Assembly (NCBI GenBank): GCA_910584385.1
Contig: CAJUAK010000002.1
Location: forward strand, 34,418 to 98,417
Length of the DNA stretch: 64,000 nucleotides
Origin: an uncultured Alphaproteobacteria bacterium
GTDB taxonomy: Bacteria; Pseudomonadota; Alphaproteobacteria; RF32; CAG-239
Direction: 5' to 3'
Below the pieces are notes generated by a model. That model was given only the letters and a program-made list of their open reading frames with translations. It was not told the origin of the DNA and ran no database searches. How positions within the stretch are numbered: the first letter of the stretch is position 1; each line of letters opens with the position of its first letter. Made by a program: the position numbers and the translations under genes. Shown here piece by piece: positions 14,779-58,141 of the stretch.

Positions 14779-15387
14779 ATGAAAAAATGGCTTTATCTTT
14801 TCGCTTTTTCCTTTTGTCCTTTGACGGCAGCCGCGCAGATGCCGTATATGGAAGAAATCCGCGCGCTTGGAGCAATTTCAGGCCAGGGGATGGCTTGCGG
14901 CGCTGAAAAATATGACACTTTTGAAATGCTGGTGCGTGCCATTCTCCTTTCAAAATCTCCCTCGGATGTTTTGCAGGGAAAGGCGATGTATGCATATAAT
15001 GAAGAAAAAGCTAATGCCTATATGTCTAAACAAATGGACGGATTTTATGGTTGTGCGGAAATCAACCGCCGTTTTAATGCCCAAGACATATTTAAGGCCG
15101 TTTTATATGATGACGGGACAATCCAAATGCCGGATGGCACCATTATTACGCCGCGCCGCCCGTATGATGCTAATTTTTTATATAAAAAAGACAAGGCTGT
15201 CTTAGATAAGGCGAAGGCGATTTATAACGGCAGCAATGATGCTAAGATTTTGAATGTTGATGTTAAAAATGCCGAAAACCAGAAAGTTATCTTGCCGTCC
15301 TGGGATGCTTCCGAGAAAACGCTTCCAAAATCTCAAGAGGCACCTGTTTTTGAATCTTCGGTAAAACATATCCGCCGTAAAAATTGA
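14779..15387 (+). CDS. Exported hypothetical protein.
   Basis: Signal peptide MKKWLYLFAFSFCPLTAAAQ. Confidence 0.45.
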   Translation: MKKWLYLFAFSFCPLTAAAQMPYMEEIRALGAISGQGMACGAEKYDTFEMLVRAILLSKSPSDVLQGKAMYAYNEEKANAYMSKQMDGFYGCAEINRRFNAQDIFKAVLYDDGTIQMPDGTIITPRRPYDANFLYKKDKAVLDKAKAIYNGSNDAKILNVDVKNAENQKVILPSWDASEKTLPKSQEAPVFESSVKHIRRKN

Positions 15388-17234: not shown

Positions 17235-17570
17235 TCATTTTTCAACCATTTCCATCAGCAAAGGGTTAACGATGTTTTTGACATCGTTTTCATAGGCTTT
17301 GCCGAGCCAAATCCAACAATAGTCTTTGCGTTTTACCTTCCCGCCCAATTGCTTTTTCAGGGCAAGGCAGATTTTTCGCCTTCCGATATAGCTGATTTCT
17401 CCGTTTCTGCCAGATTTGATGAAAATATTTAAGCTAAGCGCTTCTGCCAAATCCAGAGAGATTTCTTCCACGTCTTGTGGCGAAACATTTACGGCCAGGC
17501 AGGAGTTTTCATTTTTAACGATATTATTCGCGATTAGGCTGAAAATTTGTTTTTTTCTTTTTTCTTCCAT
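17235..17570 (-). CDS. Hypothetical protein.
   Basis: 111-aa ORF with no recognised domain. Confidence 0.35.
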   Translation of the reverse strand: MEEKRKKQIFSLIANNIVKNENSCLAVNVSPQDVEEISLDLAEALSLNIFIKSGRNGEISYIGRRKICLALKKQLGGKVKRKDYCWIWLGKAYENDVKNIVNPLLMEMVEK

Positions 17571-17739
17571 AATTATTTATTTTTAATAAATTGCGGCATC
17601 AATAAAGCACAATGATTTGTTTTGTCAATATAAATATTTATAAGCCCTGTCCTTGCCGCTAGACAGAAAAGTCCTTGACATAGCCATCGCTTTGTGATAG
17701 CCTAATCTTGTGTGTGGATGTTAGATTAGGGTTTGTGTC

Positions 17740-19956
17740 ATGTTATGTGCTATTTATCATTTTTTTATTTCCGCTGCTTTTGTTTTTATGAGTGCAGTTT
17801 CTGTTAATGCCGCCACTTATTGGCTGCCGGACTATCAAGGTGGACATTCTTTAGGAAGGCCTTTTCCCGACCCTAATCAAGAAGATTCATGTACAAAGTT
17901 TAATATGCTTTCAGCAGTGCCTAATGGCGCTGTCTGTGATACGGCGTATCCCGGAAACGGGCTGCGCTGCTACCGCAACTGTCGCTGCAAGTCGGAGTTC
18001 ACCTACACCTCACACACATACAATCTGAAATGCAGTGACAGTTGCACCTTGAATGGCGTAACAAAATATAAATGCCTTAAGTGTTGTAATGATGGATACG
18101 TTTTTGTTAGTTCGACAGGCAAACCAATGCCATGTGAGGCACATCTGTTGGATGAGCAGCCTGTTTTGAATTCCAGCTGCGGAAGCGGAAAATGTTTTAA
18201 ATGTTTAAGCGATGTATGCCCACCGTCTTCCAAGACGAAGGAAGCCTGTGAAAGCGAAGGAGGCGTGCCGGTTTCTGTTGCAGCTACAACAGAAGCTGGA
18301 ACAACTTGTTATAATTGTACAAAATGTGTAAGTGGCACAGTTTTGTGTGATTACGACAAATGCGCAAGTAACATCCAGATGCTCCCTAATGTGGCAGAAA
18401 AGAAAATGATGAGTTGCTGCCGTGTGCCATGCAGTGTTTGCCCGCTCGGGCAAACACAATGTCCGAGTGCACCGGGTACGATAGCTTGTGTCGATAAAAA
18501 TAATAAGGGTTGCTGCTCAGATATCGACTGCGCCGGCAATAGCACGGAAACACGTTGTGATTTGACAACGTATACTTGCACGCTGCCGCTCTGTGATACG
18601 GCGAACGGCTATAGCGCTTCCAAGCCTTCTTCCTGTAAGGATGGAAAAACACTCTGTCAGCAAAGCAGCAATAGCTCTTGCTGGGGCTGTTGCGGCGTGG
18701 AATGTGAAAGCGGTTATAGCACGGCAACCACAAAGGAAAGCTGTAAAGACGGGCAGACTTTTGAGCAGCAGAGCAATAATGCAGCCTGTGGAAAATGCAC
18801 AGGGATTGCCTGCCAGACGGGTTATGCAACAAACGTTGTTCCTTATTCGCCGGATATGGACGCATTTATTACCAATATTACATGTGAGGACGGACAATCA
18901 GTGATTGACCAATCAACAAATCCGGCTTGTAAAAAATGCAGCGGTACGGCTTGCGCAAGCGGTTATAGTACAGCAATCACAAAAGAAAGCTGTAAGTCTG
19001 GACAGACTTTTGAACAGCAGAGTAACAAGACCATATGTGGAAAATGTGATGGCGTTGCGTGTGAAGAGGGATATACATTGCGGCATACGGTAACCATGGG
19101 TGGATTTCCAACCAGCATTGGTGTTGTTTGCCAAGGAACACAATATCTTGTAAAACAGCCGACAAATGAGAAATGTGAAAAATGTTCAAGCTGTCCTCAG
19201 GGTTATAAGTCAGCCACATCGTTGCTTGTAACTAGTGTTTGTAAAGATGGCGAGAAATCTGAAAAGCATCCAAGCATAACCAATTGTGTGAAATGCGTTG
19301 GCACACCCTGCGAAGAAGGGTATAGCACGACAAGCAAAACAGTTAATAATGGCTATAAGCTGGAAACACAGACCAGCAATTCTCAATGTACAAAGCTTGT
19401 TGAATGTAAAGCGACTTGCAGCAATACTCAGATTAAACAGCCTAATAGTAGTGCGACTAATAAATGCGAAGTCTGTCTTGATTGTGCAAGTGGCTATTAT
19501 TCGAATATTACTTCTTGTCCTACAGGTCAAAAGTTAGAACGCCAGCAGGCTTACAGCCAATATCATAGTTGTGTCAGATGTGTTGCTGATTGTGAAGCTG
19601 ATTACAGTACGGAAACGAAAAGTTGTCCGGATGGTCAGACATTAAAAACGCAGACATCGAATACCAGTTGTAAGATGTGTACAGGGACGGCTTGTATAAG
19701 CGGTTATAGTACGAAAGTTACCTGTAAATCAGATTTGGCAACTGTAAAACAATCTTCAAACAACAATTGTAAAAAATGTAAAGACTGTGTAACAGATGGG
19801 TGTGGCAGCGATCAGTTTTGCAATGAGACAACGGGTATTTGCTTGTTCTCCGCAGGTTTATGTCCGGGTGGAACAGCGCAGTATAAGCTCGTCAACGGGG
19901 TTCGGGTATTTATTAAATGCGTCAATGGCTCGGCCAGTTCGCAGCTTGTCTATTGA
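17740..19956 (+). CDS. Secreted cysteine-rich tandem-repeat protein of unknown function.
   Basis: Signal peptide, then at least eight degenerate repeats of about 40 aa of the form C-x-x-GYST-...-C-x-x-GQTxExQSNxxC-x-K-C-x-G-x-AC. Cysteine content is roughly 13%. Confidence 0.6.
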   Translation: MLCAIYHFFISAAFVFMSAVSVNAATYWLPDYQGGHSLGRPFPDPNQEDSCTKFNMLSAVPNGAVCDTAYPGNGLRCYRNCRCKSEFTYTSHTYNLKCSDSCTLNGVTKYKCLKCCNDGYVFVSSTGKPMPCEAHLLDEQPVLNSSCGSGKCFKCLSDVCPPSSKTKEACESEGGVPVSVAATTEAGTTCYNCTKCVSGTVLCDYDKCASNIQMLPNVAEKKMMSCCRVPCSVCPLGQTQCPSAPGTIACVDKNNKGCCSDIDCAGNSTETRCDLTTYTCTLPLCDTANGYSASKPSSCKDGKTLCQQSSNSSCWGCCGVECESGYSTATTKESCKDGQTFEQQSNNAACGKCTGIACQTGYATNVVPYSPDMDAFITNITCEDGQSVIDQSTNPACKKCSGTACASGYSTAITKESCKSGQTFEQQSNKTICGKCDGVACEEGYTLRHTVTMGGFPTSIGVVCQGTQYLVKQPTNEKCEKCSSCPQGYKSATSLLVTSVCKDGEKSEKHPSITNCVKCVGTPCEEGYSTTSKTVNNGYKLETQTSNSQCTKLVECKATCSNTQIKQPNSSATNKCEVCLDCASGYYSNITSCPTGQKLERQQAYSQYHSCVRCVADCEADYSTETKSCPDGQTLKTQTSNTSCKMCTGTACISGYSTKVTCKSDLATVKQSSNNNCKKCKDCVTDGCGSDQFCNETTGICLFSAGLCPGGTAQYKLVNGVRVFIKCVNGSASSQLVY

Positions 19957-19965
19957 CAGGCATTG

Positions 19966-20003
19966 CTAAAAACAATCCCCGCAAAATGCGGGGATTGTTT
20001 TTG
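19966..20003. terminator. Bidirectional terminator (acaatccccgcaaaatgcggggattgt).
   Basis: Perfect inverted repeat flanked by A and T runs, between convergent genes. Confidence 0.55.
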
Positions 20004-20029
20004 CAGCCTGTGCAATTGGAGCATGTTTA

Positions 20030-20827
20030 TTATTTATCCTCTGCCAGAATGCCTTTTATCAGCAGAAATTCTGGCGTCTTGCCGTTAAAGTTTTTGTGCT
20101 TTTTTGCCAGCTCGACAGATTCCTTGTCTAAGACATCGTTTAATACCTGCTTTTTGGCATTGCGCGTTTTTTCTTTTTTATTTTTTTCCGCCGGCTGCGG
20201 TGCATTCATTTTGGCTTCTTGTTCTTTAGCCTTGTCGACTTTTATTTCTTCCGGCGCTTTTAATATTTTTTCAAGAATAGACTGCGTTTCTTTAGAACGG
20301 CGGTTGGTGTAAACAATATTTTGTTTTTCAGCCGGAAGCATTTCCAATATCTTTTCCAGATTATCAAGCTGTTTATTCTTTTTAATCAGGTTAATGTCAT
20401 CAACAACCAGGATGTTGGTGCTGCTTAAATCGACCTTGCTGCTTTCGGCAAGTTCCAAGAGCAAATCAGGCGAGCCGATAATGACGTTGGCTTCTTTAGA
20501 AATTTCTTCTTCCGTATCTTGAACGGTTGCTTCGTTAATTTCATGATATTTGTTAAACACGGAAAATCTGTCAGATACGGCAACGGATTGTTCAGAATTT
20601 GGCGTGATAATCAAAATGTTTTGGGCGCCTTTTGCCGAAATGATATCAAGCAACGGAAAAACATAAGACGTTGTTTTTCCGCAGCCTTGCGGCGCAATGG
20701 TGAATACGTCTTTCCCTTGCAGGATTGAAGGAATGACGTCATTTTGAACGGTTGTCGGCTCGCTGATGCCGAATTCTTCAATGGCCTGGATTGTTTGTCC
20801 GCTTAAACCTAATTCGCTAAAATTCAT
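20030..20827 (-). CDS. DEAD-box helicase-like protein consisting of only the first RecA-like domain, with a lysine-rich C-terminal tail.
   Basis: Q-motif (PTTVQ), motif I variant APQGCGKT, and motif II as VVDD. No helicase C-terminal domain. The tail is rich in K/E. Confidence 0.5.
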   Translation of the reverse strand: MNFSELGLSGQTIQAIEEFGISEPTTVQNDVIPSILQGKDVFTIAPQGCGKTTSYVFPLLDIISAKGAQNILIITPNSEQSVAVSDRFSVFNKYHEINEATVQDTEEEISKEANVIIGSPDLLLELAESSKVDLSSTNILVVDDINLIKKNKQLDNLEKILEMLPAEKQNIVYTNRRSKETQSILEKILKAPEEIKVDKAKEQEAKMNAPQPAEKNKKEKTRNAKKQVLNDVLDKESVELAKKHKNFNGKTPEFLLIKGILAEDK

Positions 20828-20919
20828 CTTTATATAGTCCTGATAATCGTTTACAAGTTGAAAACAAGGTATTATTTTTTAAAAACATAGTCAACCCTAA
20901 AAGAAGGAAAACAAACGCC

Positions 20920-21465
20920 ATGTTAATGAATGCCGCCAATTCTTTGCTGCTGATTATTGATGTTCAGGAAAAGCTCGCCCCGACGATGAGCGCTTCCCGG
21001 GAAGTCATCTCCGGATGCGCGCGCTTAATCGGTGCTGCCGGAAGTTTGGGCGTGCCTTGTTTGTTTACGGAACAGTATCCCAAAGGTTTGGGACCGACAA
21101 TGGTTGATTTGCGCCAGGCGGCAGAGAAAAATGCAAAATATCTGCCGAAAACGGAATTTTCATGCGCAAAGAATGAAGCCATTTTGCAGGAAATTAAAAA
21201 CAGCGGGAGAAAACAAATCATTATGGCCGGTGTGGAATTGCACATCTGCGTTTTGCAAACGGCATTGGATTTGAAAGCTGCCGGCTATGATGTTTTTGTT
21301 GTGGCCAATGCCTGTTCATCCCAGGATGCGGCGCAGCATGTTCTGAGCTATCAGCGTTTGCTGGCCGCCGGCGTGGAAGTCGTTTCCTTGGAGATGGTTA
21401 TTTACGAATGGCTTGAAAAATCCGGCACGGATGTTTTCAAGGAAGTTGTAAAAAAGTATCTTTAG
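20920..21465 (+). CDS. Isochorismatase-family cysteine hydrolase.
   Basis: LLIIDVQEKLAP and the catalytic-region pattern VANACSS. Confidence 0.65.
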   Translation: MLMNAANSLLLIIDVQEKLAPTMSASREVISGCARLIGAAGSLGVPCLFTEQYPKGLGPTMVDLRQAAEKNAKYLPKTEFSCAKNEAILQEIKNSGRKQIIMAGVELHICVLQTALDLKAAGYDVFVVANACSSQDAAQHVLSYQRLLAAGVEVVSLEMVIYEWLEKSGTDVFKEVVKKYL

Positions 21466-21830
21466 GCTTTGGCGCGACCGTAAATGTCTTCATAACGGAT
21501 GATGTCATTTTCATCTAGGTTTTCGCCGTATTGGACTTCTATGAATTCCAGATTGGCGTTTTTATCGTTGCGGATGCGGTGTTTGGTCTGAACGGGGATA
21601 AACACGTTTTCTCCGGATTTTTTTATAATTTCTTTATCGCCAAGCGTAACGACGGCTTCGCCCTCTACCATAATCCAATGTTCGCTGCGGTGGTTATGCG
21701 ACTGGAGCGAGAGGCAGCTGCCCGGGGTAACAATGATTTTTTTTACGCAGAAATTGTTTCCGCCGTCTAAAACTTCCCAAGTTCCCCATGGACGGGTGTC
21801 GTGATCGCCTTTTTTATATGTATTTGCCAT
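21462..21830 (-). CDS. Cupin domain protein (mannose-6-phosphate isomerase type II C-terminal-like).
   Basis: Cupin motifs LSLQSHNHRSEHWIMVEG...IPVQTKHRIRN. Confidence 0.6.
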   Translation of the reverse strand: MANTYKKGDHDTRPWGTWEVLDGGNNFCVKKIIVTPGSCLSLQSHNHRSEHWIMVEGEAVVTLGDKEIIKKSGENVFIPVQTKHRIRNDKNANLEFIEVQYGENLDENDIIRYEDIYGRAKA

Positions 21831-21910
21831 TTTTTCCTCTTTTCTTAAAGTTTATACTTGATGTAGAAATTTATAGGCAATATAAATAAATAACAAGTTA
21901 AAATCCAGCA

Positions 21911-24184
21911 TTGGGCAGAAAAATGAAATCACCCGCAGTTAATCAGGCAATTGTTATTTTAAGGCAGCTCCGCAAAATTACCGAAGAAAGCGACTCTCTT
22001 TCAGACAAGCTTAACCGGATTATCGCTTTGATTGTTAAGGATATGAAGGCGGATGCCGGCGCTTTGTATTTGATGGTTGATGAAAGCAGCCTCGAAGTTT
22101 TTGCGGCAATCGGCTATAATGATGATATTGCCCATAAAGTTACCATGCGCAAAGGCGAAGGGCTTGTCGGCGATATTGCGGAAACAGCGCGCTCCGTTGC
22201 TGCGGCGGATGCGTGGTCTCATCCCAAATTTGTGTTTAAGCCTGAAATGGGCGAAGACAAATATAAATCTTTTGCCGGCGTGCCTTTGATACGAAACCGC
22301 CGGGCAATCGGCGTATTGACGGTTCAAAGTTTTGAAACCCATGAATACAGCCGTCTGGAAATAGAAATTCTGGAAACCGTCGCAATGGTGATGACGGAAA
22401 TCGTTTCTTCTGAAGAAATGAACAAATATAAACAGGTCTTAATCCGGGAACGCGGGCTTGTCGGGCGCGACAAAATTAAAGGCCTGGGGTTGTCAAAGGG
22501 CTATGGGCTCGGCAATGCGGTAATCCATCGCCGCGGGCGGATTGTTACAAAGATTTTTGCGGAAGACAAGGCGCAGGAGCTTTTGCGCTTGGAGGCCGCG
22601 CATACCCGCATGAACGCGGATTTGGACGAGAAATTTAACTCAACGCGCCTTGGCATCGGCGAACATACGGACATCCTTGATACATACAGGATGTTTGCCA
22701 AAGACAAAGGCTGGTATCAAAAAATTGCCGATAACGTACAAAGCGGTTTAACCGCTGAAGCGGCGGTCGAGCGGGCTTATGAAGATATGTGGAATCGGCT
22801 TTCGGGCACGACGGACCAATATCTGAAGGAACGTCTGCATGATTTGCGAGATGTGTCAGACCGCCTGCAATCTTATTTGCGCGGCGATTATGCCATTGTC
22901 AGCAAAAGCGATGCGGAAGATATTGTCATTATTGCCCAGACCATGGGACCGGCTGATTTGATGGATTATGACTATTCTAAAATCCGCGGCTTGATTATTG
23001 AAGACGGCACGCCGACTATGCATGTTGCAATTGTTGCCAAGGCTTTGGGAATTCCTGTTGTTGCAAAAATCAAAGGCCTGTTTGACGAGGTTAAAGACGG
23101 GCAGCTTATCGGCGTGGACGGCAATGAAGGATATATTTATATTTCTCCGTCCTTGGAAACTCAGAAAAAATTTAAGGCGCGCAATGCGGAAAAAGAGCAG
23201 CAGCAAGCCCGTCTGGAGGCTCTAAAAGACAAGCCTTCCGTTACGAAAGACGGCGTGAAAATAAATATGTATATCAATGTGGGGCTGGCTTTTGATCTCG
23301 ATTACATTGCAAGCACCAATTGCGATGGCGTCGGGCTTTACCGGACGGAAATTCCTTTCATGGCTTCGGACGTTATGCCCGATGTCAGCCGGCAATTCAG
23401 CTATTATAAAGATTTGATGGACCGTGCCGGCGAACGAAAAGTAACTTTCCGCAGCTTGGATGTCGGTTCGGACAAGCTTTTGCCTTATTGGAGCAATAGC
23501 GGCGAAGAGAATCCGGCAATCGGCTGGCGTTCCATCCGCATTACATTGGACCGGCGGGCGATTTTGCGCAAGCAAATGCGGGCTTTTTTGCGTGCAGCTG
23601 CCGGAAAAGAGCTCAATGTTATGTTTCCGATGATTTCGAACCTTTCAGAATTTGAGGAAGCCAAAGAAACGCTTTTGATAGAGCTTGAAAAAGAAAAAAG
23701 GAAATCGGGCGAAGTGCCCAGAAAGGTTAATATCGGTTTGATGGTTGAAGTGCCGGCGGTAGTCTTCCAACTGGATGCCATTTTGGAACAGGCAGATTTT
23801 ATTTCTATCGGAACCAATGATTTGGCTCAGTTTGTTTTTGCGTGCGACCGCGGGAATCCGAAACTTGCAGAAAGGTATGATGTTCTTTCCGCCCCGTTTT
23901 TGAATATGATGCGGCAGATTATATCTGCTGCAGACAGGCATAAAGTTTATTGTTCGGTTTGTGGCGAAATGGCTTCGAATCCGGTTGAGGCAATGGCTTT
24001 AATCGGGCTGGGGTATCGCAATTTGTCTATGTCGGGGTCGGCATTCGGAAAGGTTAAATCTATGGTGCGCACTTTGAATTGCGAAGATATAACGGATTAT
24101 GTGCAGACGCTGCTGAAATCTCAAAAAAGAACCTTGCGCCCGCAATTAATTTCCTATGCCCATGATCATGGTATTGAAATCTGA
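21911..24184 (+). CDS. ptsP: Phosphoenolpyruvate-protein phosphotransferase PtsP (EI-Ntr) with an N-terminal GAF domain.
   Basis: A GAF domain followed by Enzyme I PEP-utilising domains. Length about 750 aa. The start may instead be the second ATG at 21923. Confidence 0.85.
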   Translation: MGRKMKSPAVNQAIVILRQLRKITEESDSLSDKLNRIIALIVKDMKADAGALYLMVDESSLEVFAAIGYNDDIAHKVTMRKGEGLVGDIAETARSVAAADAWSHPKFVFKPEMGEDKYKSFAGVPLIRNRRAIGVLTVQSFETHEYSRLEIEILETVAMVMTEIVSSEEMNKYKQVLIRERGLVGRDKIKGLGLSKGYGLGNAVIHRRGRIVTKIFAEDKAQELLRLEAAHTRMNADLDEKFNSTRLGIGEHTDILDTYRMFAKDKGWYQKIADNVQSGLTAEAAVERAYEDMWNRLSGTTDQYLKERLHDLRDVSDRLQSYLRGDYAIVSKSDAEDIVIIAQTMGPADLMDYDYSKIRGLIIEDGTPTMHVAIVAKALGIPVVAKIKGLFDEVKDGQLIGVDGNEGYIYISPSLETQKKFKARNAEKEQQQARLEALKDKPSVTKDGVKINMYINVGLAFDLDYIASTNCDGVGLYRTEIPFMASDVMPDVSRQFSYYKDLMDRAGERKVTFRSLDVGSDKLLPYWSNSGEENPAIGWRSIRITLDRRAILRKQMRAFLRAAAGKELNVMFPMISNLSEFEEAKETLLIELEKEKRKSGEVPRKVNIGLMVEVPAVVFQLDAILEQADFISIGTNDLAQFVFACDRGNPKLAERYDVLSAPFLNMMRQIISAADRHKVYCSVCGEMASNPVEAMALIGLGYRNLSMSGSAFGKVKSMVRTLNCEDITDYVQTLLKSQKRTLRPQLISYAHDHGIEI

Positions 24185-24236
24185 TAAAACTTGTGTTAAG
24201 CATAAAAGCAAAATTTTTCCAAAAGGGGATTAAACC

Positions 24237-25217
24237 GTGAAAAAAGAGACTGTTGAAGAAAATATGGAAAACAAAAATATTTCCGCTGCCGAAGATGTTC
24301 TGCCTAAGGTCGGGACAACTCTGAAGGAAACAAGAGAACGCAAAAAACTTAAGCTTTCGGATATTGCCCAGGCTTTGTACATCCGCAAGGTATATCTTGA
24401 GGCTATTGAAAATAATGATTATGAAAATATTCCCGAAGCGCCTTATGGCATCGGTTTTATCCGGACATATGCCGAATATCTCGGGCTGAACGGAAACCAG
24501 ATGGTGCAGTTTTTCAAAAACGAAGCCCGTCAGGGCAGCGTTGCCGAAGGACGCGTATATGTAGCCGATGAACAAAATGAGGCGGGCGTTCCCGGAAAGA
24601 AGTATTTGCTTTTTTCTTTGCTGGCGGTCATTGCCGTTTATGCCGGCTGGACGATGTTTAACCAGACAGAGGAAGAAGAGCCTGTTTCCGAAACTCTGGT
24701 TGTGGAACGTGAAACAACCGAATCTGCCCCTTTGGTTGTGGAGGATTATTCTTTTAACAATAATCAGGAAAATGACGCTGCCGAAGGCGAGGCCTTCCAA
24801 ACGGCTGAGCCTGAAGTTCCTGTTGCCGACAGGGCGCAGATTGTTGTAACGAATGAGTCTTTTGAAGAAAAAACAGAAGAGAATCCTGTTGCTGCAGCGC
24901 AGCCTGTTGAAGAAAAGGCCGTGCCGGCAGAGGAAGAAAACAAAGCGCCTGTTGCGGCAGATAAGCCGGACAGCCGGGTTGTTTTAAAGGTGAAAAAAGA
25001 AACCTGGGTTGAAGTTAAGGATGGCTCAAAGCTGTATTTAAGCAAAGTTTTGCAGCCGGAAGCAATTTACGCTTTGCCAAATGAAAAAGGGATTATTTTG
25101 TCAGTTGGCAAAAACGACGGCGTTGATGTTTGGGTTGATGGAAAATTAACGGAAGTTGTTACGCCGGTTAAGAAGATGAATATCGAGATTGACCGGTTTT
25201 TATCAGCCAACCATTAG
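24237..25217 (+). CDS. rodZ: RodZ-like cytoskeleton protein (helix-turn-helix, a transmembrane segment, and a C-terminal DUF4115-like domain).
   Basis: N-terminal Xre-type HTH (LKLSDIAQALYIRKVYLEAIENND), one transmembrane helix, an acidic/proline-rich linker and a conserved C-terminal domain. Confidence 0.55.
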   Translation: MKKETVEENMENKNISAAEDVLPKVGTTLKETRERKKLKLSDIAQALYIRKVYLEAIENNDYENIPEAPYGIGFIRTYAEYLGLNGNQMVQFFKNEARQGSVAEGRVYVADEQNEAGVPGKKYLLFSLLAVIAVYAGWTMFNQTEEEEPVSETLVVERETTESAPLVVEDYSFNNNQENDAAEGEAFQTAEPEVPVADRAQIVVTNESFEEKTEENPVAAAQPVEEKAVPAEEENKAPVAADKPDSRVVLKVKKETWVEVKDGSKLYLSKVLQPEAIYALPNEKGIILSVGKNDGVDVWVDGKLTEVVTPVKKMNIEIDRFLSANH

Positions 25218-25247
25218 AGTATTTTAACCAGACAGGAAAAACGGCTT

Positions 25248-26351
25248 ATGCCGTTTTTCCTGTCATTTTATAAGGATAAAAAAGTGGAACAGATTATCCG
25301 GCGCAAGAGCCGTAAAATTTATGTGGGAAAAGTTGCCGTTGGTGGAGATGCGCCGATTTCAGTGCAATCAATGACCAATACGCTGACCTCTGACGCAGGT
25401 GCGACAATCGACCAAATCCGCAGGCAGGAAAACGCCGGCTGCGATATTACGCGCTGTTCTTGTCCGGATAAAGAATCCGCATTGGCTTTGAAGGAAATAA
25501 CAAAAGCCGTTAACATTCCTGTTGTGGCGGATATCCATTTTGACTACCGTTTGGGAATCCTGGCGGCGGAAAATGGTGCGGCCTGCTTGCGCATTAATCC
25601 GGGAAATATCGGTTCTATTGAAAGAATCCGTGAGGTTATCAAAGCGGCAAAGGCTAATAATTGTTCTATGCGCATTGGCGTGAACGGCGGTTCGTTGGAT
25701 AAGCGGCTGCTGGAAAAATATGGCGAACCGACAGCGGATGCCTTGGTCGAAAGCGCTTTGGAACAGGCAAAGGTTTTGGAGGACAATGATTTCCGCGAGT
25801 TTAAAATAAGCGTTAAATCTTCCAATACCCGGATGATGATTGACGCTTATCAAAAATTGGCCGCTGCTTGCGATTATCCTCTGCATTTGGGCGTAACCGA
25901 GGCAGGCGGCTTGATGAGCGGCACGGTTAAATCGGCTTTGGGAATCGGCTCTTTGCTTATGGGCGGCATTGGCGATACGCTGCGTGTTTCGCTTACGGCA
26001 GATGTCGAACAAGAGGTTCGTGCAGGCTTTGAAATTTTGAAGGCGCTTGATTTGCGGCATCGCGGCGTTCGGATTATTTCCTGTCCGACTTGTGCGCGCC
26101 GCGGATATGATGTTCAAAAAACGGTTGAAGCCTTGGAAAACCGCCTGGCACATATTTCGAAGCCGTTGACGATTGCGGTCATGGGCTGTGTGGTTAACGG
26201 CCCGGGCGAAGCCGGACATGCGGATTTTGGCGTTTGCGGCGGGCATGGCGATGAAAATATGATTTTCATAAACGGCAAGCCCCATCATAAGGTCAGCAAT
26301 AATCAGATTATTGATGAATTGGTCAGTTTAGCAGAAAAGAAAGTTGGATAA
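25248..26351 (+). CDS. ispG: 4-hydroxy-3-methylbut-2-enyl diphosphate synthase.
   Basis: [22 protein letters not shown] and the C-terminal Fe-S cysteines CPTCARR...GCVVNGPGE. Confidence 0.9.
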
Positions 26352-27587
26352 ATGGAAAAAGTACAAACAGTTCGCGGCACCTATGATGTTTATGGCAGCC
26401 AAAAAAGAAAAATGAAGAAAGTTATTAAGACGGCTTCTGAAGTGGTTGAAAAATATGGTTTTGAAGAAATTGAAACGCCTATTTTTGAATTCACGGAAGT
26501 TTTTGCCCGCAATCTGGGCGATACGTCGGATATTGTTACAAAGGAAATGTATTGCTTTAGCGATCGCGGCGGCGAAAGCCTTACGCTCCGCCCCGAAGGG
26601 ACGGCCGGTGTCGTCCGCGCTTTTATCTCGGAAGGCATGCAGCAGAATCTTCCCGTGAAATTATATTACGCCGGGCCGATGTTTCGTTATGAACGCCCGC
26701 AAAAGGGGCGTCAGCGCCAGTTTACACAATTTGGCTGTGAGCTTCTTGGCGTGGAAACGCCGCAGGCGGATATTGAAGTTATCGCGATGGCTTATGAGTT
26801 TGTTGAGAAGCTTGGGCTTCAGGGCAGCGTTACGGTAGAAATTAATTCTCTTGGCGACAAGGAAAGCCGCGATGCTTACCGCGAAAAGCTGGTTGCTTAT
26901 TTAAAAGGGCATTATGACAGCCTTTCGGCAGATTCAAAAGAGCGGTTGGAAAAGAATCCGCTCCGCGTTCTTGATTCTAAAGAAGAATGTGATAAAGCGA
27001 TTGTTGCGGCGGCGCCTTTATACCGCGACAGTTTGAATGAAGCTTCTAAAATGTTTTTTGAAAATGTTTTGAAAGGTTTGGATGCCTTGGGAATAAAATA
27101 TCGCGTGAATGACCGTTTGGTGCGCGGCTTGGATTATTATTCCCATACGGTGTTTGAATTGGTAACCGACAAGCTTGGTGCCCAGGGGACTGTCCTTGCC
27201 GGCGGGCGCTATGACGGTTTGGTTTCCCAGATGGGCGGCGGCGAAGTTCCCGGCATCGGCTGGGCTTGCGGCGTGGAACGCCTGGCTCTTTTGAATGATG
27301 AGGAAATGGGCAAACCTCGCCCGGTTGCGGTTATACCTTTGGGCGAAGATACGGCGGAAATGGCTTTGAAAATTGCTTATCAACTGCGCCTTGCCGGATT
27401 TCCCGTCGAACAAAGCTATTCGGGGAATATTAAAAAGAGAATGATAAAGGCTAATAAAGCGAACGCTTATAAAGCGGTTATCATCGGTTCTGAAGAGCTG
27501 GCAAAAGGCGTGGTAACAATTAAGGATTTGGAAAGCGGCGAACAAAAAGAAGTTGCTTTGGATAATATTGTGAAAGAGGTTGAATAA
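26352..27587 (+). CDS. hisS: Histidine--tRNA ligase.
   Basis: Class II aminoacyl-tRNA synthetase motifs (FRYERPQKGRQRQF) and an anticodon-binding C-terminal domain. Confidence 0.9.
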   Translation: MEKVQTVRGTYDVYGSQKRKMKKVIKTASEVVEKYGFEEIETPIFEFTEVFARNLGDTSDIVTKEMYCFSDRGGESLTLRPEGTAGVVRAFISEGMQQNLPVKLYYAGPMFRYERPQKGRQRQFTQFGCELLGVETPQADIEVIAMAYEFVEKLGLQGSVTVEINSLGDKESRDAYREKLVAYLKGHYDSLSADSKERLEKNPLRVLDSKEECDKAIVAAAPLYRDSLNEASKMFFENVLKGLDALGIKYRVNDRLVRGLDYYSHTVFELVTDKLGAQGTVLAGGRYDGLVSQMGGGEVPGIGWACGVERLALLNDEEMGKPRPVAVIPLGEDTAEMALKIAYQLRLAGFPVEQSYSGNIKKRMIKANKANAYKAVIIGSEELAKGVVTIKDLESGEQKEVALDNIVKEVE

Positions 27588-28660
27588 TGAGTTTTGCAGA
27601 GAAACTAAGCAATGTCGTTAACCGTTATAATGAGCTTGAAAGCCTTATTTCTGCACCGGATTTGAATTCTGACGAGCTGGTGCGCATGAATAAGGAATTG
27701 GCGGCGCTTGCTCCGGTGGTTGAGGGAATTAACGCTTTGCACAAGCTGGAAGCGGATATGCTTGACGCTAAAGCGATGATGGAAGACGCGTCTTTGGATA
27801 AAGAGATGAAGGAACTTGCCGAAGCGGAATATTATGATTTGAAAGAACGGCTGCCGGAACAAGAAAAGCAAGTGAAAATTTTGCTTTTGCCCAAAGATGC
27901 GGAAGATGAGAAAAATGCGATTTTGGAAGTGCGGGCGGGAACCGGCGGTGATGAAGCCGCATTATTTGCCTCTGTTTTGTTTGAAATGTATCAACGTTAT
28001 TCGGTTTTGCAGGGCTGGAAGTTTGAGGTTAATGATGTTACGGAAAACGAGCTGGGCGGCTATAAGGAAGCTACGGCAAAAATTACCGGCAAGGATGTTT
28101 TTGCAAAGTTGAAGTTTGAATCGGGGGCGCACCGTGTGCAGCGCGTCCCGGTAACCGAATCTCAGGGGCGGGTTCATACCTCCGCGGCAACGGTTGCCGT
28201 TTTGCCGGAAATTGAAGAAGTGGATATGTATATAAATCCGGCGGATTTGAAAATTGATGTTTATCGCGCTTCCGGTGCCGGCGGGCAACATGTTAACAGA
28301 ACAGAATCCGCTGTGCGCATTACCCATATTCCAACCGGCGTGGTTGTTCAGTGCCAGGATGACCGTTCGCAATTTAAGAATAAAGAAAAAGCGATGAATC
28401 ACCTTCGCGCAAAATTATATGATATGCAAAAGGAAAGCATTAATTCGGCTTATTCCGAAAAACGCAAGCTGCAGGTTGGCAGCGGCGACCGCAGCGAACG
28501 TATCCGTACTTACAACTATCCGCAGGGGCGGGTAACCGATCATAGGATAAACCTGACGTTATATAAGTTAAACGAAGTTGTTTCCGGCGATGCATTGGGC
28601 GAAATTATAGAAGCCTTGGTTACCGAAGATCAGGCGCAGAAGCTTTCGGAATTAGAATAA
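27587..28660 (+). CDS. prfA: Peptide chain release factor 1.
   Basis: GGQ motif (SGAGGQHVNRTES) and PVT tripeptide. Start overlaps the hisS stop. Confidence 0.85.
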   Translation: MSFAEKLSNVVNRYNELESLISAPDLNSDELVRMNKELAALAPVVEGINALHKLEADMLDAKAMMEDASLDKEMKELAEAEYYDLKERLPEQEKQVKILLLPKDAEDEKNAILEVRAGTGGDEAALFASVLFEMYQRYSVLQGWKFEVNDVTENELGGYKEATAKITGKDVFAKLKFESGAHRVQRVPVTESQGRVHTSAATVAVLPEIEEVDMYINPADLKIDVYRASGAGGQHVNRTESAVRITHIPTGVVVQCQDDRSQFKNKEKAMNHLRAKLYDMQKESINSAYSEKRKLQVGSGDRSERIRTYNYPQGRVTDHRINLTLYKLNEVVSGDALGEIIEALVTEDQAQKLSELE

Positions 28661-28799
28661 GCATGATGGCGGCGGATAATAATCTGCCGCTATTTTTTTG
28701 AATTTATTTATCATCAATGACCTTTAAATGCTTTAGTGCAGGCATATATTAATATCTGATTAAACAATTCCCCAATAACTTGATAGAAGGATATGCATA

Positions 28800-29012
28800 A
28801 TGCAAAAAGGTACTGTTAAATGGTTTAACACAAAAAAAGGTTATGGTTTTATTCAGCCGGAAAATGGCGAGAAAGATATTTTTATTCATGTAACCCAAAT
28901 GGAAAAAACAGGCTTGCGCCGTTTGTTTGACGGACAATTGGTGAGCTTTGAGGTATTTAAAGATGCCCGCAGCGGAAAAATTGCGGCAACAGAAGTTCAT
29001 CTGATTTCTTAA
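28800..29012 (+). CDS. cspA: Cold-shock protein (CspA family).
   Basis: MQKGTVKWFNTKKGYGFI with the RNP1/RNP2 motifs. Confidence 0.85.
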   Translation: MQKGTVKWFNTKKGYGFIQPENGEKDIFIHVTQMEKTGLRRLFDGQLVSFEVFKDARSGKIAATEVHLIS

Positions 29013-29068
29013 GGGCTAAAAAAATAAAAGCTCCCGAATTTTGGTTTCGGGAGCTGTTTGCATATGGA

Positions 29069-29509
29069 TTATTTTAAATCTTTAACCATTTTGGCGAAAG
29101 TTATGCCTTGTTCTTCAAATATTTCGCCTTCTTGCCGGTAACCTATTTTTTCGTAAAAACTGACAACAGAAAGCATGGCATGCATAATGATTTTTGCAAA
29201 CCCGGCTTCTTTGGCGCGTTTTTCTGCATAGGCAACCATTTCCCGCCCAATGCCTTCGCCTTGGTAACGGGTGTCGACAGCAACTTGCATCATGCGAATG
29301 ATTTCATTGTCGACAGGTGCCAAAATCAAGCTTCCGACAAGGCGGTCGTCAAGATTTTCAATGCAGCCGATGTGGAGATATTCCGCTTCTTTTGCCCGGT
29401 GAGTATCTAAAAATTTGAGTCCCAGGGGTTCTAATAAAATTTTGTAGCGCAAGGCGACAGATTCATCATAACGGCTGGAGCCAAAGTCAATATCAATCAT
29501 CTTTTTCAT
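29069..29509 (-). CDS. GNAT family N-acetyltransferase.
   Basis: Acetyl-CoA binding motif RYQGEGIGREMVAYAEKRAK. Start chosen at the RBS-preceded ATG at 29509. Confidence 0.65.
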   Translation of the reverse strand: MKKMIDIDFGSSRYDESVALRYKILLEPLGLKFLDTHRAKEAEYLHIGCIENLDDRLVGSLILAPVDNEIIRMMQVAVDTRYQGEGIGREMVAYAEKRAKEAGFAKIIMHAMLSVVSFYEKIGYRQEGEIFEEQGITFAKMVKDLK

Positions 29510-29637
29510 GAGCCATCTCCTCTTCTGCTTTTTTATTAGTATAATCTTTTTTATTGATATGCGCAATATATATTGCTTAAAACAAATTTTTAATCTATTT
29601 TCAAAAAAAAATAAGTTCTATCAGATAAGGATAAAAT

Positions 29638-31443
29638 ATGCATACCCCAATGGAGCGGATTAGGAATTTTGCAATTATTGCCCATATTGACCACGGCAAG
29701 TCAACGCTGGCCGATCGGCTTATCGAATATTGCGGCGGCCTGGAAAAAAGAGAAATGACCGAACAGGTTTTAGATTCCATGGATATTGAAAAAGAACGTG
29801 GCATTACGATTAAGGCGCAGACCGTGCGCCTGAACTACCAGGCTAAAGATGGAAATTCTTATCAGCTTAATTTGATGGATACGCCCGGACACGTGGACTT
29901 TTCCTATGAGGTCTCCCGGTCTTTGGCTTCATGCGAAGGGTCTGTTCTGGTCGTGGATGCCACGCAGGGCGTGGAAGCGCAAACTTTGGCAAATGTTTAT
30001 TTGGCACTTGACAATAATCATGAAATCATTCCGGTCTTGAATAAAATAGACCTTCCTTCGGCTGAGCCAGAGAAAGTAAAGCAGCAAATAGAAGACGTTA
30101 TCGGATTAGATGCTTCGGAAGCTGTTGAAACCTCCGGAAAAAGCGGGCTTGGCGTGGAAAATTTGTTGGAGGCGATTGTTCAAAAGCTTCCGTCTCCTTC
30201 CGGAGATGAAAAGGCGCCTTTGAAAGCTTTGCTGATTGACAGTTGGTATGACGCTTACCTCGGGGTTATTATCCTGGTGCGCATTCATGACGGGGTTTTG
30301 CGCAAAAAAACACAAATCCGCATGATGTCAAGCGGTGCCACCTATCTTGTCGACCGTGTTGGCATATTTACGCCCAAGATGCAGGATGTTGATGCGCTCT
30401 ATCCAGGGGAAGTCGGCTTTTTAACCGCCAGCATTAAAGCTGTTGCCGATTGCAGCATTGGCGATACGATTACGGATAATAAAATGCCTTGCCAGGAACC
30501 ATTGCAAGGGTTTAAACCTTCTGTCCCGGTTGTTTTTTGTTCTATTTTTCCGGTGGATTCCAGCCAATATGAGGCGCTAAAGGATGCATTGGCGAAACTT
30601 AAGCTGAATGATGCGAGCATCGATTACCAAAATGAAAATTCCGCGGCGCTGGGGTTGGGGTTCCGCTGCGGTTTCCTTGGCTTGCTGCACATGGAGATTA
30701 TCCAAGAGCGCTTAGGGCGGGAATTTGATTTGGATCTTATTACGACGGCGCCGTCCGTTGCTTACAAAATCCATCTGACGGACGGTTCCGAAATGCTGTT
30801 GCATAATCCGGCGGACATGCCTGATGTAACTAAAATTTCATCGATCGAAGAACCGGTCGTCAAGGCAACAATTATGGTTCCCGACACTTATTTGGGAGCG
30901 GTATTAAAACTTTGCAATGACCGTCGCGGCGAACAGCATGAATTGACCTATGTCGGGAGCCGGGCGATGGTGGTGTATAAAATTCCTTTAAATGAAATTG
31001 TCTTTGATTTTTATGACCGCCTGAAATCTATTACCAGCGGCTATGCCAGCTTTGATTATGAAATTATCGGCTATGAAGTTTCGGATTTGGTGCGTGTTCA
31101 AATTTTAATTAATGAAGAACCTGTTGATGCTTTGGCTTTTTTGTGCCATCGCAGCGAGGCCGAATCCCGCGGGCGCCAGATTTGCGAGCGCCTTAAAGAC
31201 CTCATCCCCAGGCATTTATTTAAAATTCCAATCCAGGCTGCCATCGGCGGAAGGGTTGTTGCCCGCGAAACCATCTCTGCTTTGCGCAAAGATGTAACGG
31301 CCAAATGTTATGGCGGCGATGTAACCCGTAAGCGTAAACTTCTGGATAAACAGAAAAAAGGCAAGCTCCGCATGCGGCAGTTCGGCAAGGTTGAAGTTCC
31401 CCAGTCGGCGTTTATTGAGGCGTTGCGTATCGGCGACCAGTAA
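29638..31443 (+). CDS. lepA: Elongation factor 4 (LepA).
   Basis: GTPase motifs ([17 protein letters not shown] and NKID) and the LepA-specific C-terminal domain. Confidence 0.9.
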
Positions 31444-47987: not shown

Positions 47988-48037
47988 GCAAGGTAAAATT
48001 ACTATTGTGGATTTTATTTCATAAATCTGTAACAGAG

Positions 48038-48073
48038 CTAAAAAAAGAACCCTGCTGAGTGTTTCAGCAGGGC
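48038..48073 (-). terminator. Minus-strand terminator (ccctgctga...tcagcaggg with an A-run on the plus strand).
   Basis: Hairpin plus A7, downstream of the 48097..48279 minus-strand gene. Confidence 0.5.
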
Positions 48074-48096
48074 TTTGGAGATGTATATGAAGCTTA

Positions 48097-48279
48097 CTAG
48101 AAAATTACTTTCTGCATATTGCTCCGCATGAGAGCGTCTTTTCTGCGTAAATTTTCTTTTTTTATTTGTTCAATGCGGATTAAATTTTTCCATACATGGC
48201 TTTCATTTTCTTTGATTGCCAAATCCAGACAGCTGTCTTGCAGCTTGAGGCTTTCCAGGCTGTTATCAAGATATTTCAT
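48097..48279 (-). CDS. DUF465 (YdcH-like) small coiled-coil protein.
   Basis: 60 aa with the LK..KL.LKD-like C-terminal pattern (IKKENLRRKDALMRS). Confidence 0.45.
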   Translation of the reverse strand: MKYLDNSLESLKLQDSCLDLAIKENESHVWKNLIRIEQIKKENLRRKDALMRSNMQKVIF

Positions 48280-48427
48280 GATTGTTCTCCCAAGATGGAA
48301 TTATTGCTAATTTGTAGCAATATCAATTATAGCATTTTTTTATTTAAAATCCAGCAAAAAGAATCTGTTAAATAGTTTTAGTTCTGAAAATGATGCTTAT
48401 ATTAAAAATAAAAATGAGGAGAAGAGT

Positions 48428-48817
48428 ATGCCGAATATGGATTGGTATCATGGTTTGTTAAAGCCGGATTTAACGCCGCCGGATTTTTTGTTTGGCGTTG
48501 TCTGGCCTGTTTTATATTTTTTGATGGGGTTGAGTTTGGTATTGCTTTGGAAAAACTCCGGCAAAAAGCTGTCTTGGCCTTTATTTTGGTTTGCGCTCCA
48601 GCTGGTTTTGAATTTGGCGTGGAGCCCGGTGTTTTTCGGTATGCGGAATATTGGCGGCGGCTTAGCGGTTATTTTGCTTTTATTTTTTGCACTTTCAATA
48701 ACAGTCGCGCTTTTCTACCGGCGCTATAAAATATCCGGATGGTTATTAATTCCTTATTGGTTTTGGGTCTTGTTTGCCGTCTATCTTAACTTTGGCATTT
48801 GGCTGCTTAATTCATAA
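48428..48817 (+). CDS. tspO: TspO/MBR family tryptophan-rich membrane protein. It is short and appears to lack the first transmembrane helix.
   Basis: LKPDLTPPDFLFGVVWPVLYFLMG and a C-terminal AVYLNFGIWLLN. RBS gaggag before the ATG. Confidence 0.6.
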   Translation: MPNMDWYHGLLKPDLTPPDFLFGVVWPVLYFLMGLSLVLLWKNSGKKLSWPLFWFALQLVLNLAWSPVFFGMRNIGGGLAVILLLFFALSITVALFYRRYKISGWLLIPYWFWVLFAVYLNFGIWLLNS

Positions 48818-48914
48818 TTATGAGATTCTCTGTGGCATAATTTAAATTTTTTGTTGTTTTTTATATTTTAAAGGCTAAAAACAGAATAGTGCGTAATTTA
48901 GTTGGAGATATAAA

Positions 48915-49286
48915 ATGGAAAAATTTAAAGCTAGCTTAAAAACTTATTTTTTAGATGTTTTGGTTAACCAGTATGTTGATTTTAAAGGCCGGGCATCCCG
49001 TACACAATTTTGGATGTTTTTCCTTTATGTTTTTGTAATTATGTTTGTCATCGGTTTTATTGCCGGATTGCTGAATATGCCCCGTTTGGCTCAGTTGGCA
49101 ATTTTGCCGTTCTTGCTGCCAAATATTGCTATTGCTGTCCGCCGCATCAGAGATTTGGGAATTTCCGGATGGTTTATCCTGGTATCTTTTGTTCCTTTTG
49201 TCGGTAGCATTTTGGTTTTGATCGGCTATTGCCTGCCGACAGATTTCCTCAAACCTTATGTTGAGAAATTGATGAAGAAAAACTAA
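48915..49286 (+). CDS. DUF805 (YhaH-like) inner membrane protein.
   Basis: GRASRTQFWMF and a conserved RRIRDLGISGW region. Confidence 0.75.
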   Translation: MEKFKASLKTYFLDVLVNQYVDFKGRASRTQFWMFFLYVFVIMFVIGFIAGLLNMPRLAQLAILPFLLPNIAIAVRRIRDLGISGWFILVSFVPFVGSILVLIGYCLPTDFLKPYVEKLMKKN

Positions 49287-49304
49287 TATTCTTTTTTGAA
49301 TATG

Positions 49305-49341
49305 GGGCGGTTGTCCGAGAGCACGGACAGCCGCTTTTTTT
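49305..49341 (+). terminator. Rho-independent terminator (gcggttgtccg...cggacagccgc followed by T7).
   Basis: Hairpin with a T-run after the DUF805 gene. Confidence 0.55.
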
Positions 49342-49459
49342 ATATATAGTCTAGCTTCGTAATTTTCGCTTTGTTAAGCTCAACAACTTCGCTTCGGTCA
49401 AAGACCTTGTAAGCTCGCTGCGGTTGCTGCCGCTTTCCTTGCTTGCAACAAGGTCTATT

Positions 49460-49505
49460 CACCATAATAAAAAAAGACCCGTTGGGGTCTGTTTTTATTA
49501 TGGTG
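49460..49505. repeat. 46-bp perfect palindrome (caccataataaaaaaagaccc gttg gggtctttttttattatggtg type). It works as a bidirectional terminator and may mark an island boundary.
   Basis: The arms were read directly. Base composition drops sharply to the right of this point. Confidence 0.55.
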
Positions 49506-49692
49506 CTCCGAAGTTGACGAATTGTTGAACTCCGTCAGGGATGAAACCATTGATATAAACGGATGGAAATAATGAAAATTTAACGGAGGGCAGACAATGA
49601 CATAACACAATGAAGATGCCTGATATAGAGGCTTTAAACGATTATAACACAAAAATAATTAAAGAAATAACGAAATTTTACGGAGAAAAATA

Positions 49693-49902: not shown

Positions 49903-49993
49903 ATTATTTTGAATAATATACTTTAATAAGTGCGATTTTTGCACAAATTAAGCAAGGAATCGCACTTGTTTTGTTATTTTAGTTTTTCTTAAC

Positions 49994-51519: not shown

Positions 51520-51552
51520 TTCAGTTTTTTATGTAGGGTTGGTAAATTTCTA

Positions 51553-52589: not shown

Positions 52590-52598
52590 ATCTATAGT

Positions 52599-58130: not shown

Positions 58131-58141
58131 CTTGTACTTCC

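Follow-up and report, generated by a model that had tools for sequence, protein, structure and literature searches.

The 64-kb stretch of DNA analysed here, which we refer to as the window, carries at 17740..19956 on the forward strand an open reading frame (ORF) that begins with ATG and encodes a cysteine-rich protein of 738 amino acids (aa). The predicted product consists of a signal peptide, a head module, an irregular Cys-rich region, an array of repeat units and a Cys-rich tail. We propose that it may be an exported, disulfide-bonded modular protein, the stalk of which varies among the members of a small family. The coordinates of its modules and of the flanking signals are collected in the table.

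Table. Modules of the Cys-rich protein and signals flanking its gene (positions in the window; residues of the 738-aa protein).
Feature	Position	Strand	Residues	Details	Basis
Promoter-like site	17675..17703	+		TTGACA at 17675-17680, 17-nt spacer, TG-n-TAGCCT (-10 hexamer 17698-17703); putative	read by eye
Shine-Dalgarno-like sequence	17728..17731	+		AGGG, ATG 8 nt downstream	read by eye
Signal peptide	17740..17811	+	1-24	MLCAIYHFFISAAFVFMSAVSVNA; predicted signal peptidase I cleavage after VNA	hydrophobicity, family alignment
Head module	17812..18114	+	25-125	family-specific; 10 Cys; begins ATYWLPDY; two similar β-hairpins (…NGLRCYRNCRC, …NGVTKYKCLKCC)	alignment
Irregular Cys-rich region	18115..18591	+	126-284 (159 aa)	22 Cys; variable among paralogs; low AlphaFold2 (AF2) confidence	
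Repeat array	18592..19785	+	285-682	40 Cys; ten units and a 26-aa half unit	hidden Markov model (HMM)
Block shared with paralog P0002	19285..19581	+	516-614	about 300 nt, 93.7% nucleotide identity	blastn
C-terminal Cys-rich tail	19786..19956	+	683-738 (56 aa)	6 Cys; includes the stop codon; not conserved across paralogs	
Bidirectional intrinsic terminator hairpin	19968..20002	.		between convergent genes; A-run and T-run flanks	folding

The 83 cysteines of the window protein make up 11.2% of its residues, and all except one, which is in the signal peptide, belong to the mature chain (82 Cys); the earlier note on this DNA had overestimated them at about 95. Their number is even in every mature module (10, 22, 40 and 6). 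The signal peptide has a maximum Kyte-Doolittle 19-mer of 1.99 and ends V-N-A, and in 11 of 11 aligned homologs it ends A/S-x-A/S right before ATYWLPDY, of which YWLPD is invariant. A start at Met17, as given in two database entries, would leave the window protein without a functional signal peptide. Lipoprotein processing was considered and is unlikely, because the Cys of an LAGC-like box is present only in some homologs and is not conserved; cleavage at this Cys would give a mature chain with a hydrophobic N-terminus. Nothing resembling a transmembrane segment is present in the mature protein (maximum Kyte-Doolittle 19-mer of 0.97), and no transmembrane segment, sorting motif or β-barrel signature was found in the tail, which ends …NGSASSQLVY. 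A C-terminal β-signal of the outer-membrane-protein type was rejected because the C-termini differ among paralogs. Of all modules, the head alone is conserved throughout the family, with 22 invariant columns and a mean identity of 60% in an alignment of nine heads; the window head is 53-70% identical to those of the other members. It has no relative in Pfam or, when searched as a profile, in the Protein Data Bank (PDB), and it is modelled poorly by AF2, with predicted local distance difference test (pLDDT) scores of 30-60.

Iterative HMM searches resolved the repeat array into ten units of 31-47 aa (median 36) and the half unit, with the skeleton C1-x2-GY-x(5-20)-C2-x2-G-x(9-12)-C3-x2-C4-x3. 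Units R1-R5 and R7-R9 contain four cysteines each, R0 contains six and R6 contains two. A non-circular repeat HMM was built from 43 units of other family proteins, with the window protein and the units of the block shared with P0002 left out. This model scored the mature window protein at 251.7 bits, whereas 1000 composition-preserving shuffles averaged -25 bits and did not exceed 6.8 bits, and it recovered the same ten units with per-unit E-values of 5e-7 to 8.5e-17. These results confirm the description in the earlier note, which had placed the ORF exactly and had reported a signal peptide followed by degenerate Cys-rich repeats of about 40 aa (about 36-40 aa here) with this skeleton; both repeat strings that it gave as examples are present, at residues 405-441 and 322-358. 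The CxKC and CxxC pairs, which it had called frequent, number 9 and 18, respectively, with 9.4 ± 2.6 CxxC pairs in shuffles. At the DNA level, the repeats of the window gene are degenerate: the best direct pair covers 137 nt at 72% identity, identity over short stretches is 72-84% at most, and Tandem Repeats Finder detected no array in the gene. Each of the other family members contains 3-8 units, compared to the ten of the window protein.

The distribution of cysteines among units suggests how they are paired. In 53 distinct units from the family and 33 units from distant relatives, the number of canonical cysteines is always even (four, six or two). The six-Cys units are of the first-unit type, and their two extra cysteines always co-occur. 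In the two-Cys units, C2 and C4 are always the missing ones, and C1 and C3 are kept. This co-loss was observed in three unrelated unit types, represented by residues 524-555 of the window protein (and the orthologous modules), P0009 287-321 and P0009 517-550. Since C2 and C4 are lost jointly and C1 and C3 are invariant, we infer two independent disulfides within each unit, C1-C3 and C2-C4; the joint loss likewise argues against a four-ligand metal site. One paralog locus, probably of the same genome as the window, has a DsbA-family gene nearby. The co-loss pattern, the signal peptide and this DsbA-family gene make an oxidised, disulfide-bonded protein the best reading, as a prediction.

Domain searches gave no name to these modules. 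The full window protein matched no family in Pfam-A or NCBIfam, even at E ≤ 10 (including the myxococcal Cys-rich repeat and Chlam_OMP6), and had no match in PHROGs, in agreement with the earlier statement that it does not resemble common bacterial adhesin repeats. When 18 three-repeat segments were compared with Pfam, only sub-threshold noise was obtained, in which TNFR_c6 was commonest (four of the 18 segments). Neither the repeat and head profiles nor the full protein retrieved anything meaningful from PDB sequences, and a literature search for similar proteins returned nothing useful. The other family members have no precomputed Pfam domain; a rescan of P0014, P0011 and P0005 at E ≤ 1 produced a single sub-threshold match, of P0014 to FAINT (15.5 bits, with a cut-off of 20.7 bits).

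In the full-length AlphaFold model, the pLDDT is 59.7 overall and 70-86 in the repeat region, where each unit forms one β-hairpin. An AF2 model of three repeats (aa 322-440), based on an alignment of 18 three-repeat stretches from the family, has a pLDDT of 93.2 and a predicted template modelling score (pTM) of 0.73 and contains three hairpins. Foldseek searches with both models against the PDB, and with the three-repeat model against BFVD, found no match at E ≤ 1e-3. The top PDB match of the full model was the EGF array of NELL2 (E 7e-3, template modelling score (TM) 0.11-0.21), followed by many cysteine-rich domains (CRDs) of the TNFR family. For the three-repeat model, the top PDB match was R-spondin Fu1-Fu2 (E 1.5, TM 0.15), followed by GITR, TRAIL-R2 and HER2, and the best BFVD matches were tail fibres (E 0.26, TM 0.18). 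The idea that the protein recalls eukaryotic extracellular modules and protist variant surface proteins (VSPs) is therefore upheld only in part: TNFR, EGF and furin-repeat proteins do head the Foldseek lists, but none of these matches is significant (E 7e-3 and 1.5) and a VSP-type tail is absent. Nothing pointed to a viral protein, as judged by PHROG matches, viral contigs and BFVD folds, and no relative was confirmed in IMG/VR. The repeat, the head and the family are uncatalogued and without a detectable structural relative, although secreted Cys-rich tandem-repeat proteins are already known as a kind. The repeat is not a known domain, as no curated family or solved structure matches it significantly.

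We delineated the family in a set of 5.8 billion proteins, where it comprises 14 clusters of 663-1053 aa, all unnamed and devoid of Pfam domains. A repeat-profile search of 1.84 billion cluster representatives identified 30 proteins at E ≤ 1e-3, of which 12 reach E ≤ 1e-10. All true family members have a signal peptide and the 101-aa head, and the paralogs are 39-50% identical with invariant Cys columns. A head-profile search of the 5.8-billion-protein set found nothing outside the family; it returned one fragment only and did not list the known members again. Downstream of the head, family members differ in the number of GY units, in the presence of a second repeat type and in extra non-repeat inserts (P0014, P0011). 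The second repeat type, of 42-43 aa with the pattern KTCEEQGxKTCGxxCIAxxxCCTNGxEGCxxGQKCxxxGxC, occurs in P0009-P0013 (e.g., L002 7168-7440 and L011 1203-1942) in 2-6 copies that are 80-91% identical in DNA and that differ in number between alleles; it has no Pfam match and is absent from the window protein. In P0014 (1053 aa; L006 8001-11162), residues ~560-1000 form a non-repeat insert that is duplicated internally as two copies of ~170 aa; the copies bear the motifs …G(F/Y)V(I)P…(N)Y I(N/Q)K(I/V)DQ…WWT(S/T)… and have no Pfam match. This duplicated insert could be a candidate binding module.

More distant relatives (P0046; P0047/49/52/55/61; P0050/51/62/63) carry the C-xx-GY…C…C-xx-C unit, with profile E-values of 2e-54 to 1e-4. 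They differ from the window family in that their heads are entirely different; most have a signal peptide. One distant group begins …LTCKSG..C…DCTALGY…HYLYCPF, and another (P0050/51/62/63) is membrane-anchored, with a glycine-rich C-terminal transmembrane anchor and no obvious signal peptide. The distant relatives give no functional information because none has a Pfam domain or a name. Pattern scans of the ATYWLPDY type found 16 stretches in species-representative genomes, 53 in viral contigs and 176 in JGI metagenome contigs, none of which was confirmed by tblastn; this is weak evidence of absence, since the family may be masked or under-represented there. The family appears to be very small and restricted to one narrow group of alphaproteobacteria, which are diderm and uncultured.

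Alleles and paralogs of the family differ by whole units. Two otherwise identical alleles, P0004 and P0030, differ by 68 aa, which corresponds to two GY units, and the otherwise identical P0009 and P0010 differ by 42 aa, which corresponds to one unit of the second type. In the more diverged pair P0011/P0033 the difference is 86 aa, or two type-b units. The genes with variable unit numbers hold tandem arrays at the DNA level, with periods of 102, 126 and 129/258 nt and 74-91% match. The 90% cluster of the window protein contains same-length variants with one or two substitutions, together with start-site and truncation variants. The proposal that repeat DNA of this kind drives length variation therefore fails for the window allele, which has no array and a constant length, and holds for other family members, which differ by whole units and have DNA arrays. 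The comparison of repeat number between strains, which the earlier note had recommended, likewise gave a divided answer: close variants of the window allele are of the same length, and P0004/P0030 and P0009/P0010 differ by units.

A second form of variation is exchange between paralogs. The block shared with P0002 is the only similarity between the two genes that is detectable by blastn. Its central ~200 nt are 100% identical, and every difference lies at the edges. At identical residues, third codon positions of the window gene and P0002 show an identity of 0.92 within the block, compared to 0.43 in the conserved head. For other pairs of paralogs, identity in this module is only 73-79%. Because of the identical core, the edge-only differences, the high third-position identity and the lower identity of the other pairs, we interpret the block as a tract of recent gene conversion or segment transfer. 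Two contigs from different samples were compared with window 17535-29956 and L001 3742-13992. Contig L005 (1-9645) joins the upstream flank and the 5' part of the window gene to the 3' part of P0002 and the tolQ flank, and contig L012 (1-14170) joins the ruvB-ybgC flank and the 5' part of P0002 to the 3' part of the window gene and the DEAD…LepA flank. In both contigs a single crossover lies within the identical core, identity to the parents is 99.6-99.8% on either side of it, and one flank is short. These structures could reflect either reciprocal homologous recombination (an inversion) or assembler chimeras formed at the 200-nt repeat.

The gene itself has the layout expected of a single transcript. 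No other in-frame start lies upstream of the ORF, because the open frame begins at 17725. A consensus promoter scan did not list the promoter-like site, since its -10 hexamer fits the consensus at only three of six positions. The terminator hairpin (ΔG -28.9 kcal/mol, z = -7.2; an equally stable structure in 0 of 200 shuffles) separates the Cys-rich gene from a convergent DEAD-box gene; it was overlooked by the consensus promoter/terminator scan and was confirmed by folding. The strong terminator 3' of the gene, together with the promoter-like and Shine-Dalgarno-like sequences upstream, suggests that the Cys-rich gene is a stand-alone transcription unit. An Rfam scan of the window gave no match. 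Two hypothetical ORFs without a family match lie on the upstream side: a 202-aa ORF with a signal-peptide-like N-terminus at 14779-15387 (+) and a divergent 111-aa ORF at 17235-17570 (-).

The neighbours of the gene in the window are housekeeping genes, encoding pyruvate kinase, an ABC-F ATPase, a DEAD-box N-domain protein, isochorismatase, a cupin, PtsP with a GAF domain, RodZ, GcpE, HisRS, RF1, LepA and AsmA. A 1387-aa neighbour was considered as RpoB and proved to be an AsmA-family protein. The ybgC and tolQ genes are normally adjacent in the tol-pal cluster; at paralog locus L001 (5304-9012), a Cys-rich gene is inserted between them. Other paralogs have housekeeping surroundings that are unrelated to one another (next to a response regulator and AspRS, between dnaK and dnaE, and near secDF) or form tandem arrays at L006 8001-13440 (1053 + 691 aa) and L008 4635-11418 (741 + 729 + 689 aa). 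The L006 array adjoins a fragment of an IS200-type Y1 transposase as well as two large ORFs of 775 and 1148 aa, which are lipoprotein-like and have no Pfam domain. The 1053-aa paralog probably lies on one contig with the window gene, in which case a single genome would contain three or four copies at least.

Marker genes in the window or in related contigs (GapR, DUF4167, DciA, PtsP with GAF, Tol-Pal, AsmA, LpxI/LpxB, FliP and HydF) indicate that the host is a diderm, flagellated and probably anaerobic alphaproteobacterium known only from metagenome assemblies. The window region 48000-64000 has a low GC content (0.33-0.37, compared to 0.42-0.47 elsewhere) and is a defence or mobile island. It contains hipA (50317-51519), the type I restriction-modification genes hsdR (52599-55727) and hsdM (59998-61557), two overlapping half-size hsdS ORFs (56870-57496 and 57462-58130), RhuM (58934-60001) and several unannotated ORFs.

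The explanation that we favour, and to which we give an even chance, is that the gene encodes an exported, disulfide-bonded modular protein that forms a variable stalk, extracellular or exposed on the envelope. The exported, modular and disulfide-locked nature of the product is the firmer part of this explanation, held with fair confidence, and its role is the more tentative part. The precursor would be exported by the Sec pathway and cleaved after VNA, as predicted, to release an anchorless mature chain of head, irregular Cys-rich region, hairpin units and Cys-rich tail. Each canonical unit would be pinned by two internal disulfides, and the units would be joined as a stiff, protease-resistant rod. 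The family would keep the head and diversify the stalk by unit gain and loss, by the second repeat type and by gene conversion between paralogs. In its most likely role, as far as the sequence allows, the stalk would expose variable surfaces, for binding or for shielding, to a host or to the environment. An environment-facing stalk is preferred over an enzyme or a conserved structural part because of the export signal, the extreme predicted disulfide content, the fixed geometry between modelled units (pTM 0.73), the combination of constant head and variable stalk, the paralogs and the recombinational diversification. The predicted disulfide content would confer robustness to proteases and chemicals. 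Nothing in the data suggests an enzymatic or transport role.

Several observations count against this proposal. The exact 738-aa sequence is present in 87 indexed blocks of the assembly collection (24 contigs were read), and the window allele is invariant; this invariance across many assemblies argues against rapid variation of the window gene. The n-region of the window signal peptide (MLCAIYHFF…) contains no K or R, whereas all homologs have a basic one (e.g., MSGILKK…). In diderm bacteria, a Sec signal ensures only arrival in the periplasm unless a lipobox, an autotransporter domain or a recognisable secretion tag accompanies it; secretion of the window protein past the inner membrane and its exposure at the surface are tentative proposals. 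No secretion system or partner gene is conserved beside any paralog in the contexts compared, and no ligand-binding domain was recognised in any paralog. Finally, the co-loss pattern is the sole basis of the proposed disulfide pairing.

The strongest rival is a structural protein of the periplasm or outer envelope that would stiffen the envelope, possibly through intermolecular disulfide cross-links, after the manner of OmcB and OmcA, the chlamydial Cys-rich proteins of the outer-membrane complex on which this comparison is based. We consider this unlikely. The presence of a Sec signal alone, with no recognisable secretion tag or nearby transporter, the very high Cys content and the placement of one paralog in the tol-pal neighbourhood (ybgC-tolQ) would all fit such a role. 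However, the even number of cysteines per module and the co-loss pattern point to intra-unit pairs, with no obvious free Cys for cross-links, and no paralog context other than the tol-pal one is connected with the envelope. Structural envelope proteins are usually single-copy and conserved, whereas the window family is multi-copy, mosaic and variable in length, and neither Chlam_OMP6 nor any other Pfam family is matched. Improbable, in our estimate, is a mimic or decoy of eukaryotic Cys-rich receptor modules (TNFR, EGF or furin repeat) acquired or evolved for host ligands. The weak Foldseek lists are led by TNFR CRDs, EGF arrays, R-spondin Fu repeats and the Cys-rich domain of HER2, the sub-threshold Pfam matches are most often to TNFR_c6 (4 of 18 segments), and the pairing proposed here is also found in the B2 module of TNFR proteins and in the first two disulfides of EGF domains. 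Yet no match is significant (best E-values of 7e-3, 1.5 and 0.46, and TM at most 0.26-0.34), the units have four cysteines rather than six, and no eukaryotic homolog was recognised among 14 inspected non-family matches, most of which have a signal peptide or a membrane anchor.

The cysteines could instead be metal ligands in zinc-ribbon or rubredoxin-like knuckles, making the product a metal-binding or metal-storage protein. CxxC is indeed enriched (18 compared to 9.4 expected), and sub-threshold matches to zinc-finger and rubredoxin-like Pfam models occur at E 0.05-2. Three features of the protein make this very unlikely: the conserved signal peptide directs it to the oxidising periplasm; the invariance of C1 and C3 after loss of C2 and C4 suits two disulfides and not a four-ligand site; and each unit has only one CxxC knuckle, C1 and C2 being 10-24 residues apart, so that the two CxxC knuckles that supply the four ligands of zinc-ribbon and rubredoxin-like sites were not found in the repeat units. 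That the ORF is spurious or decaying, or an assembly artefact, is scarcely credible. The atypical n-region of the signal peptide and the annotated variants P0042 and P0044, which start at Met17 or are truncated, could be taken in its favour, but the frame is unbroken for 2.2 kb, dozens of independent assemblies contain an identical sequence, the gene is followed by a clean terminator, and diverged paralogs with saturated synonymous sites have kept the Cys and motif columns. A bolder version of the preferred stalk reading, fairly unlikely in our judgement, regards the family as a bacterial counterpart of protist variant surface proteins: a small multigene family of disulfide-armoured proteins, secreted or at the surface, in uncultured and possibly gut-dwelling alphaproteobacteria, diversified by unit gain and loss and by paralog recombination, through gene conversion and possibly through reciprocal exchange that rearranges the chromosome.

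If the variant-surface version is true, the family would provide surface variation at the level of the population, by means of a repeat fold that has not been described before. A Cys content of ~11%, potentially with 41 disulfides, is rare among bacterial proteins, and the repeat is an uncatalogued module with a high-confidence model: Pfam and NCBIfam have no entry for it, and neither solved nor viral structures match it significantly. All three hallmarks of diversifying surface genes are seen in the family, namely module shuffling, variation in unit number and gene conversion between paralogs. If surface-exposed or secreted, its members would be candidates for interaction with hosts, phages or particles in this lineage; if resident in the envelope, they would indicate an unusual disulfide-based envelope architecture outside the Chlamydiae. 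Either way, the analysis provides a new family definition together with testable predictions of disulfide topology and recombination, and the repeat could serve protein engineers as a compact disulfide-stabilised scaffold.

Among known systems, the TNFR family gives the commonest weak likeness of the window protein in both Foldseek and Pfam. TNFR_c6 (PF00020) proteins have tandem extracellular modules, each ~40 aa long, whose disulfide-pinned β-hairpins build an elongated rod, as proposed here for the window protein. The 1-3/2-4 pairing inferred for the window repeat matches that of the B2 module of TNFR proteins and is shared by the first two disulfides of EGF domains. In contrast, TNFR modules have six cysteines (three disulfides), and the window units have four with a GY motif and a different spacing. 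The best TNFR_c6 score is 11.3 bits (E 0.46-0.49), compared to a gathering score of 29.4 bits, and the full protein has no match to this family at E ≤ 10; Foldseek matches have E ≥ 0.015 and TM ≤ 0.34, and superposition on solved CRDs is not significant. The window protein is moreover bacterial, with a Sec signal and no transmembrane segment. EGF-like domains have six cysteines paired 1-3, 2-4 and 5-6, a pattern that the window repeats do not show; no EGF-like Pfam family matches the full protein, and cEGF appears below threshold in 3 of the 18 segments (best E 0.019). The furin-like repeats of R-spondin (Fu) and the ephrin-receptor-like GCC2_GCC3 modules resemble the window repeats in the CxxC-x3-4-C-xx-G-Y/F pattern across unit boundaries and in being β-hairpin repeats, and differ in that neither Furin-like nor Ephrin_rec_like is matched in Pfam at E ≤ 10 and the R-spondin match (E 1.5, TM 0.15) is insignificant.

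At the level of the family, protist surface proteins offer a parallel. The VSPs of Giardia contain ~12% Cys with enriched CxxC and form a multigene family that evolves as a mosaic through recombination of paralogs. The window protein resembles these and the ciliate surface antigens in its 11.2% Cys, its enriched CxxC pairs and its membership in a multigene family that is mosaic through paralog recombination. It differs from Giardia VSPs (PF03302) in having no match to their profile at E ≤ 10 and no C-terminal transmembrane anchor or CRGKA tail; the window family has few copies per genome rather than hundreds, belongs to a bacterial host and offers no support for mutually exclusive expression. 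The chlamydial OmcB and OmcA share with the window protein Sec export, a very high Cys content, a diderm host and the lack of a classical anchor. There is no sequence or family match to them, and the window protein is set apart by its regular repeat array, by cysteines that are even in number and apparently paired within units, and by its multi-copy, variable family.

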